A stretch of 64,000 nucleotides of DNA from positions 66,684 through 130,683 of the forward strand of contig CAYIOP010000002.1 of assembly GCA_964365185.1 (NCBI GenBank), read 5' to 3'. Source of the DNA: an uncultured Candidatus Saccharibacteria bacterium. Lineage in GTDB: Bacteria; Patescibacteriota; Minisyncoccia; UBA6257; 2-01-FULL-56-20. Position numbers and translations under genes: made by a program. Below, piece by piece: positions 36,918 to 38,178 of this stretch. Under the pieces are notes generated by a model that saw only the letters and a list, made by a program, of their open reading frames with translations, did not search any database and was not told where the DNA came from. Numbering within the stretch: the first letter of the stretch is position 1; the number at the start of each line of letters is the position of its first letter.

Positions 36918-38178
36918 TTTTTTTTACATTATATCAGATTAATCTTTTATAATGTAAAAACCTCTGATTAATATAGTGGTAAACCCCGTAGGAAATAAAG
37001 CGTTTGCCGTCAAAGATATTAATAACTTAAAAAGTTTGGGTAATCTTTAACTTTCAAAAAAACATATATTAATATTTAAAAACGCTTTTCCGGCAATTTC
37101 CTACGGGGTAAAAAAAGAGTCCGCATTTTCGAAGTGTTTCGATAGCGGGCTCACATTGTGCTCCAAAATATTTTGCCAGTTATATTGGACTTTACAGTCC
37201 GGGTGAGAGCGAATCCAAATTTTAGAGAATTTCCCTCTCAAAAATTCTGGCTTCCAAATAACAGTCGCAGCGCTGGACTTGCCGCTACGTTTTTTCTTTT
37301 TAAACTTCTACTTTAGTCCAGAAAAACTTACCCGGTGGTTCAGATGTCGGCATCCATGTCCTCCTTGCTATTTTGGGTAGCATGTTCCATAGATTGCGGT
37401 TCGCGTCTCCTTGTTGGCCAAAGAGACAGTGAGTGAAATTTAGAAAGGAGGGACTACGATCCAACTAGTAATATGAATCAGAGTCCCGGAAAAAATATCT
37501 TCTCACTTTTTCTCCTTTGGTTTCCTCCGATCTCTAACCATTTATGATGATTGTTTGAATCGGAGGTCGACCGGCCGGGATCAGCTCTTGGTGACGACGG
37601 AACTAATTAATTTCGCGCGATTCATCGCGGAGTGGATAATGTTCAAACCAATCATATCTTGTCTCACCTCCTTTCGGTTAGGATTGACCCTCGCCTTATT
37701 TAATTGTTGTTTTCCTGAAAAATAAGGTATTCTTCAGGTTCTAATTCAATTATAGCATACCCCCAAAAATTGTCAAGGACGCTGGAATTTCTGCTGTTTC
37801 CGAAGCCGCTGCCTGAAATAATATCCCTTTTGTCTCCAAGCAACTACTTTCGGCAACTGTTTCCTGATTAAAGTCAGGTGTCTGCTTCTTATAAACCCCC
37901 CTGATTTCTCCTTCCAACAATTCGTCTAGATTCGCTCACTGATGCTCCTTTTAGAAATAACTTAAATCCGATATTCAAATTGTCGAGGTGCTAAAATTAT
38001 TTATCCTTGATTCTAATCGTCTCAAATTAAAAATCAAGTGTCTATCTTCTAAATTGAGTTGAATTTTTTGATAATTCAATCCTTGATATTTTATTGTAAA
38101 TTGGTCATTGATAATTGGTAATTTCTATATGTATTGCCATCATATCTCCAGCATATTACCATTGTATTACTGCATTTT

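Follow-up and report, generated by a model that had tools for sequence, protein, structure and literature searches.

A candidate stand-alone structured RNA on a lineage-specific insertion between a glutaredoxin-like gene and trxB of a Patescibacterium

Large bacterial non-coding RNAs (ncRNAs) such as OLE, GOLLD, ROOL, raiA and HEARO often have a patchy distribution or reside on mobile DNA. Staphylococcus aureus RNAIII is 514 nt long, has about 14 hairpins, pairs with the Shine-Dalgarno (SD) regions of its targets by means of C-rich loops and contains a 26-codon open reading frame (ORF), starting at about nt 85, which encodes delta-haemolysin. Patescibacteria have very small, packed genomes and are almost without described regulatory RNAs. 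Here we analyse a stretch of 64,000 nt (hereafter the window) from an uncultured Candidatus Saccharibacteria bacterium, in which a gap of about 1.26 kb (36918-38178) separates a glutaredoxin-like (Grx-like) gene from trxB. The reading we favour, in which our confidence is about evenly balanced, is that the gap holds a stand-alone structured ncRNA or a dual-function RNA, encoded on the minus strand of a lineage-specific insertion. As far as the comparisons below reach, the predicted RNA is outside the known RNA and protein families.

The minus-strand unit

The Grx-like gene (36684-36917, 77 aa, Pfam Glutaredoxin) has its stop codon ending at 36917 and the thioredoxin-reductase-like gene trxB (38179-39102, Pfam Pyr_redox_2) has its ATG at 38179. 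An initial inspection of the letters and their ORFs (hereafter the sequence-only reading) had described the gap between them as free of ORFs of 60 aa or more, which was borne out, since the longest ORF on either strand measures 56 aa. All six frames contain TAA, TAG and TGA, with 17-32 stops per frame of about 420 codons, and since all three stop types interrupt every frame an alternative genetic code or recoded gene is excluded. A dicodon log-odds statistic was trained on the long ORFs of the window. It remained at or below 0.02 in all six frames of 36870-38130 and reached 0.25-0.76 in the flanking genes, including the Grx-like gene, which was outside the training set. A six-frame Pfam scan of the gap at E<=5 returned a single noise match of 12.9 bits, the concatenated stop-free segments matched nothing among 5.8 billion protein clusters at either E<=0.01 or E<=10, and tblastn against the window and the loci of relatives gave noise only. 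With all four approaches negative, a pseudogene or decayed protein gene was dropped as a candidate. The frameshifted pseudogene across the gap that the sequence-only reading had named as its own counter-case was looked for in the same four ways (Pfam, protein clusters, tblastn, dicodon statistic) and not found; the decayed gene it had listed as an option, showing neither residual coding signal nor homology, is weakened rather than eliminated. The GC content of the core (37110-37742) is 42.3%, so that its description as GC-richer holds with respect to the left (27%) and right (34%) parts of the gap but not with respect to coding DNA (mean 41%).

The elements of the minus-strand unit are as follows.

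37110..37742, minus strand: predicted structured RNA of 633 nt, based on folding z-score, maximum expected accuracy (MEA) structure and non-coding character
37749..37776, minus strand: extended sigma-70-type promoter, with -35 TTGACA at 37776-37771 and -10 TATAAT at 37754-37749
37110..37152, minus strand: intrinsic-terminator-like element, hairpin at 37152-37117 and then U7 at 37116-37110
37664..37674, minus strand: extended Shine-Dalgarno-like motif AAAGGAGGUGA, 8 nt ahead of an AUG
37581..37655, minus strand: 24-codon ORF (MIGLNIIHSAMNRAKLISSVVTKS) including its stop, nt 88-162 of the RNA
37442..37451, minus strand: anti-SD-like CCUCCUUUCU, found once in the window, able to pair with the SD-like motif 220 nt upstream

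The two promoter hexamers match the consensus at 12/12 positions and are separated by a spacer of 16 nt ending in TGc (extended -10), which predicts a transcription start at about 37742. Counting both strands, the window contains two perfect consensus promoters, where shuffles predict 0.03. The other one, TTGACA-N17-TATAAT at 47653-47681 on the plus strand, precedes by about 80 nt a 139-aa ORF (47763-48182). This ORF is led by a strong SD, AAGGAGG, finds no match in Pfam and presumably encodes a highly expressed protein of no assigned function. The terminator-like hairpin reads GAGCCCGC-UA-UCGAA-ACAC-UUCGA-AAAU-GCGGACUC on the minus strand, directly followed by the U7 tract, and folds at -14.9 kcal/mol with helix probabilities of 0.91-0.99; it was overlooked by a consensus scan because its apical part exceeds the 8-nt loop limit. 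Promoter and terminator delimit a unit of about 633 nt that converges on the Grx-like gene and has no co-oriented gene downstream, and the promoter scan found no strong plus-strand promoter within it. Going by sequence predictions, the unit has what a stand-alone ncRNA gene should have, namely its own promoter and terminator with non-coding sequence between them.

Folding sets this unit apart from the remainder of the window, and does so on one strand. The folding check proposed in the sequence-only reading gave z-scores of -6.69 (minus strand) versus -2.03 (plus strand) for 37100-37760 (661 nt) and of -6.84 versus -1.56 for the exact 633-nt unit. The latter is the lowest value of 204 window tiles of equal length: the 202 background tiles have a mean of -0.87 with a standard deviation of 1.57 and none is lower. 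Its strand difference of 5.3 compares with a background maximum of 4.3. Shuffling within blocks of 40 or 80 nt, which preserves local composition, left z-scores of -4.5 and -5.6 on the minus strand versus -1.6 and -1.0 on the plus strand. The signal is spread along 37250-37750 instead of residing in one hairpin, since 200-nt tiles show a minus-strand excess of -2 to -3.5 through most of this region, the tile starting at 37600 excepted, with the plus strand near zero. The MEA structure comprises 183 pairs, with many helices at p>0.9, and the strand asymmetry arises because 20 of these pairs are G-U. The predicted layout begins with a 5' hairpin of 11 bp, continues through a domain of several hairpins (RNA nt ~48-293) and a hairpin of 9 bp at the centre, GUCUCUUUG/CAAGGAGAC, and closes with a 3' multi-branch domain and the terminator. 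The hairpins picked out earlier by eye, CCTCCGAT-N27-ATCGGAGG, CGCGA-TTCA-TCGCG, CCGGCCGG and the competing stems at about 37694-37738, are all present. The general idea of a structured RNA thereby gains a promoter, a terminator, a strand-specific z-score and a non-coding sequence, while the specific forms once proposed for it fare less well (see below); moreover the structure signal lies on the minus strand, which the sequence-only reading had brought up for the small ORF only. Elsewhere in the window, low z-scores were also found for tiles in or overlapping coding regions, at 42412-43044 (plus strand, -5.5) and 24688-25320 (minus strand, -5.1).

The SD-like motif is a perfect match of 11 nt, read as AAAGGAGGTGA at 37674-37664, and AAGGAGGTGA occurs a single time in the window, both strands included. 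The strong SD and the 24-codon ORF behind it had been seen before, and both are present, but the distance from AAAGGAGGTGA to the ATG is 8 nt and not 6. SD usage is low across the window, where a core of at least 5 nt within 25 nt upstream was found for 9/59 gene starts and where trxB, Grx and DsbA are among the many genes without an SD core. The 24-aa peptide has a mean hydrophobicity of 0.19 and is too short for homology comparison. Its amphipathic moment is reached by 13.7% of shuffles and is not significant, upon which the idea of an amphipathic peptide was dropped. Pairing probabilities in the predicted ensemble are ~1.0 for GGUGA and ~0.6 for AGGA, and the SD is sequestered in all predicted conformers. 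The anti-SD-like CCUCCUUUCU is identical, in a comparison with the general bacterial sequence, to the canonical 3' tail (anti-SD) of 16S rRNA. The helix between the SD-like and anti-SD-like elements closes a 230-nt domain in the minimum free energy structure of the 661-nt region; in the 633-nt ensemble it has p ~0.2 and forcing it costs about 8 kcal/mol.

Homology searches and the insertion at the trxB locus

At the gathering threshold, Rfam identified in the whole window only one tRNA (56570-56654). At E<=10, the regions 36600-38400 and 37080-37790 (711 nt) gave only noise of at most 20 bits, the families at issue being RNase P, tmRNA, 6S, SRP, OLE, GOLLD, ROOL, HEARO and raiA as well as riboswitches, group I/II introns, self-cleaving ribozymes and RNAIII. 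The Rfam scan suggested in the sequence-only reading hence produced nothing above noise in the segment, and ARAGORN detected no tRNA or tmRNA in it. A group I intron match (E=0.14) is merely a long inverted repeat, and a match to the SR6 antitoxin (E=5.2, 16.7 bits versus a gathering score of 55) is noise. The latter alignment falls on 37262-37300 of the plus strand, inside the core, where a weak hairpin is followed by UUUUUUCUUUUU; this hairpin could stop stray read-through from the Grx operon.

Searches at the DNA level yielded no homologue either, be it by blastn in distant mode against phages and plasmids or by exact and gapped pattern scans of IMG/VR. Twelve degenerate back-translated 24-nt patterns, run against IMG/VR and JGI metagenomes, gave chance matches only, none of which was confirmed. 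At the search sensitivity reached, the sequence of the segment is an orphan. A search of the literature on large ncRNAs in the candidate phyla radiation found nothing pertinent. Three further candidates were rejected: a ColE1-like RNA-primed origin has no supporting feature and the U7 terminator speaks against a primer RNA; an rRNA-operon relic, considered for the 16S-tail-like motif, gave no match to rRNA models; and an oriC was dropped for want of a supporting feature.

Related loci were fetched via TrxB and three further relatives were reached through the protein database. In a Patescibacterium from the same aquifer well (L002) and in a Candidatus Liptonbacteria genome (L003), nhmmer aligns the Grx gene and the 5' end of trxB; only about 45 nt separate the two genes and the 1.26 kb has no match at all. 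In the other relatives (L013, L014 and L015/L016/L017), with TrxB 71-73% identical, the gene before trxB encodes SPW or Grx and either overlaps trxB or stops up to 87 nt before it. All five related Patescibacteria and Liptonbacteria loci therefore have Grx or SPW beside trxB, with anything from a few bases of overlap to a gap of about 90 nt, and the whole 1.26 kb is lineage-specific. The comparison with relatives that the sequence-only reading had envisaged for covariation thus met loci that lack the segment rather than diverged copies of it. Since the ~45-nt spacers of L002 and L003 do not align, the borders of the insertion cannot be placed exactly. The closest TrxB in the 5.8-billion-cluster database is 73% identical, hence that database holds no sister genomes.

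The insertion is not an assembly artefact, since independent contigs cover the segment at 100% identity. They come from assemblies of the same site, three in ENA and one in Logan; two span the whole segment (L010, L018) and three span single junctions (L011, L012, L019). The contig is present in the DNA samples ERZ1292632, ERZ1292626, ERZ1292629 and ERR3858116, of groundwater from the Hainich well H43. A second copy of the segment was found neither in the window nor in the 10 kb upstream of it, a packed glycan cluster. Its ends show only AT-rich inverted matches of 80-81% (I3, I8); convincing terminal inverted repeats or a target-site duplication were not found, nor were tandem repeats or TIGR- or CRISPR-like arrays.

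Apart from the minus-strand unit, the segment comprises the following.

36918..38178, no strand: ORF-free lineage-specific segment as a whole, spanning ~1.26 kb from the Grx-like gene to trxB, borders approximate
36921..36960, no strand: AT-only palindrome with 20-nt arms, 90% complementary, just past the Grx stop
36983..37109, no strand: perfect 14-bp inverted repeat ACCCCGTAGGAAAT / ATTTCCTACGGGGT, arms at 36983-36996 and 37096-37109
37777..38178, no strand: rest of the lineage-specific DNA, AT-rich (GC 34%), folding z-score about 0 on both strands

The palindrome has z-scores of -5 to -6 on both strands. It had been called terminator-like and is indeed present, but with no U-run after it on either strand it is not a canonical terminator. 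The 14-bp inverted repeat, likewise noted before, is perfect, although it encloses 99 nt of AT-rich DNA and not about 95. This element lies directly downstream of the predicted terminator of the RNA and has a z-score of -5.86; neither IMG/VR nor the rest of the window yielded another copy. On the far side of the unit, the plus strand has weak promoter-like sites at 38068-38097 and 38134-38162, each with 9/12 consensus matches.

On the other side of trxB lies a second lineage-specific block, 39077-42407, of about 3.3 kb of small accessory genes: a 131-aa ORF, a DUF2283 protein, a pair formed by an 80-aa and a ParE-like protein, two paralogous proteins of 203 and 205 aa with signal-anchor-like N-termini, and a 235-aa ORF. 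The wider synteny of L015 and L016 is epimerase, Bac_transf, DsbA, Grx, trxB, a 299-aa gene, groES and groEL, so that there trxB runs straight to the 299-aa gene (42619-43518 in the window). Relative to these genomes, the present one has gained ~1.26 kb upstream and ~3.3 kb downstream of trxB, and the locus resembles a hot spot of insertion. The Grx-trxB pairs of relatives are close enough for co-transcription, whereas here trxB would be cut off from Grx by convergent transcription, in which case it must use the weak promoter-like sites at 38068-38162.

Proposed action and competing explanations

If the gap indeed holds a stand-alone or dual-function RNA, RNA polymerase with the housekeeping sigma factor would start at about 37742 from the extended -10 promoter, run leftwards through the GC-richer, hairpin-dense core and end at the hairpin and U7 tract (37152-37110), short of the convergent Grx-like gene. 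The product would fold into serial stable hairpin domains and act as an RNA, not as the leader of a gene. Our preferred guess is an action on translation, by pairing with ribosome-binding sites or with the 3' end of 16S rRNA, a tie we draw tentatively because the RNA holds an SD and anti-SD-like pair. Alternatively, the RNA may gate translation of its own 24-codon ORF and have a dual function like that of Staphylococcus RNAIII. Transcription, functionality and role of the 633-nt unit are in all of this inferred from sequence. A bolder version, which we regard as a long shot, is that the unit is the founding member of an undescribed class of RNAs of about 630 nt in Patescibacteria (candidate phyla radiation), horizontally acquired at a thiol-redox locus and acting on translation through its unique super-SD and 16S-tail mimic; such an RNA could for example bind to the anti-SD of the ribosome or titrate it, or cover the small number of mRNAs that are SD-led, in a genome that can otherwise largely do without this mode of initiation. 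It would be costly to maintain a strongly folded RNA of 633 nt whose promoter is among the two best of the 64 kb. Provided that it is transcribed and conserved, an uncultured lineage would thereby contribute a new class of large ncRNA, with a possible bearing on translation initiation or its regulation in an SD-poor genome. Were it recently acquired junk, the locus would still record the splitting of an ancestral Grx-trxB pair by an insertion that made trxB depend on a new promoter.

Several observations weigh against a functional RNA. Thermodynamic z-scores by themselves are known for false positives, the terminator has an interrupted stem of only moderate stability, and the strong SD and AUG mean that a purely non-coding role is not assured. 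Since no homologues turned up in the databases searched, neither covariation nor conservation lends support; the one known source of the sequence is a groundwater population of low coverage, the retrieved contigs being all 100% identical; and the absence of the segment from five relatives may mean a recent acquisition that has yet to be purged. That the whole 1.26 kb is missing at these loci also suits a remnant without function, left by horizontally acquired or mobile DNA (a decayed insertion sequence (IS), an integrated fragment or a gene relic) and still bearing a relic promoter and structured ends in part, in which the fold signal would be inherited from its origin and not kept by selection. 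Its length is what one expects of an IS, the perfect 14-bp inverted repeat and the AT palindrome lie within it, a second accessory insertion with a ParE-like toxin and DUF2283 lies beyond trxB (39077-42407) where L015 and L016 have none, and with no homologue found in the databases searched conservation is not demonstrated. However, no frame has a coding signal or Pfam or protein-database similarity, neither the window nor the 10 kb upstream holds a second copy, and AT-rich matches of 80% stand in place of convincing terminal inverted repeats or a target-site duplication. Moreover, a chance or relic origin leaves the coincidence of promoter, U7 terminator and extreme strand-specific fold unexplained, and we consider such a remnant unlikely, albeit a serious contender.

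In another explanation the unit would essentially be the mRNA of a 24-aa small protein (MIGLNIIHSAMNRAKLISSVVTKS), its structure doing no more than controlling how that mRNA is translated or how stable it is, in the way of type I toxin mRNAs with sequestered ribosome-binding sites. The strongest SD of the window (AAAGGAGGUGA) stands 8 nt before an AUG close to the 5' end of the transcript, in a genome that is seldom SD-led, the other gene with a perfect promoter has a strong SD as well, and predicted helices sequester both SD and AUG, as is typical for mRNAs of small toxins under tight control. Yet the ORF takes up only 75/633 nt and is without dicodon coding signal, the peptide is insufficiently hydrophobic for a membrane toxin and its amphipathic moment falls within the shuffle range, and no plus-strand antisense promoter was detected inside the unit, all of which makes a small-protein mRNA improbable. 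The sequence-only reading had considered a riboswitch or attenuator, or a housekeeping RNA such as RNase P or 6S. A cis-regulatory leader of trxB or the Grx operon (riboswitch, attenuator or thermosensor) or a divergent housekeeping RNA (RNase P, 6S, tmRNA, SRP) was weighed here too, and in its favour are the position between two thiol-redox genes and the wealth of hairpins. On the plus strand there is no fold excess before trxB (z about 0 at 37800-38150) and no strong promoter in the core; the minus-strand transcript has no gene downstream and ends at its terminator before the Grx-like gene. Rfam (E<=10 on 711 nt) and ARAGORN are empty, and the relatives have their upstream gene beside trxB without the segment, which rules out both an essential RNA and a leader of ancestral origin. 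This explanation is largely refuted by the strand and context of the unit, by the Rfam result and by the relatives that lack the segment, and we regard it as essentially excluded.

Other features of the window and likeness to known systems

Some structured spots lie outside the segment. At 44410-44545 an 18-bp inverted repeat (94% complementary) surrounds exactly 100 nt of GC-rich DNA with a predicted three-way junction, between a terminator-like hairpin (~44313-44345) and the groES promoter. A 321-nt region around it has a z-score of -4.7 and a 633-nt tile one of -6.3 on the plus and -5.5 on the minus strand. The element could be a small RNA or resemble a miniature inverted-repeat transposable element (MITE); in size it resembles the 14-bp inverted-repeat element at 36983-37109, from which it differs in sequence. 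Directly 5' of groES (44626-44913) and groEL (44992-46650), a perfect operator of the CIRCE type (controlling inverted repeat of chaperone expression), TTAGCACTC-N9-GAGTGCTAA, lies within a 12-bp inverted repeat at 44584-44614. Judged against the CIRCE consensus, it implies heat-shock control of the HrcA type, a prediction from sequence. Another apparent gap, 57733-58633, contains a Cys-rich ORF of 79 aa, a membrane-like one of 99 aa and one of 65 aa with a signal-like N-terminus; tiles overlapping it (58237-59502) have moderately low z-scores of -4.6 and -4.1.

Among known systems, the segment resembles ISs, MITEs and ORF-less group II introns in being a lineage-specific insert of about 1.2 kb between adjacent genes, with inverted repeats. 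Unlike these, it shows no remnant of a transposase or reverse transcriptase, occurs just once in the window, lacks both clear terminal repeats and a target duplication, and has no group II domain match in Rfam. Like the type I toxin mRNAs hok, tisB and fst, the candidate is predicted to be highly structured and to sequester its SD through long-range pairing, and its ORF is very short. It differs from them in that the peptide has no hydrophobic stretch of transmembrane length (mean hydrophobicity 0.19) and in that no antisense RNA promoter was found on the plus strand within the unit, so that it does not qualify as a type I toxin-antitoxin system; at 633 nt it is also longer than such mRNAs.

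The likeness to RNAIII is one of architecture only, the candidate having 633 nt, many hairpins and a 24-codon ORF at nt 88 behind a strong SD, as well as CCUCC motifs that can be compared with the C-rich loops of RNAIII. In contrast to RNAIII it shows no sequence or covariance-model similarity and no agr-type context, its peptide is not significantly amphipathic, its host is an unrelated Patescibacterium and any trans-acting pairing is purely inferred. OLE, GOLLD, ROOL, raiA and HEARO are defined by covariation across many genomes, whereas no conserved family could be put together for the candidate and it has no covariance-model match at E<=10. It is nevertheless predicted to be like these large ncRNAs in forming a stand-alone unit of several hundred nt with many stable helices, and like them it has a GC content above that of the surrounding intergenic DNA in an AT-rich genome.

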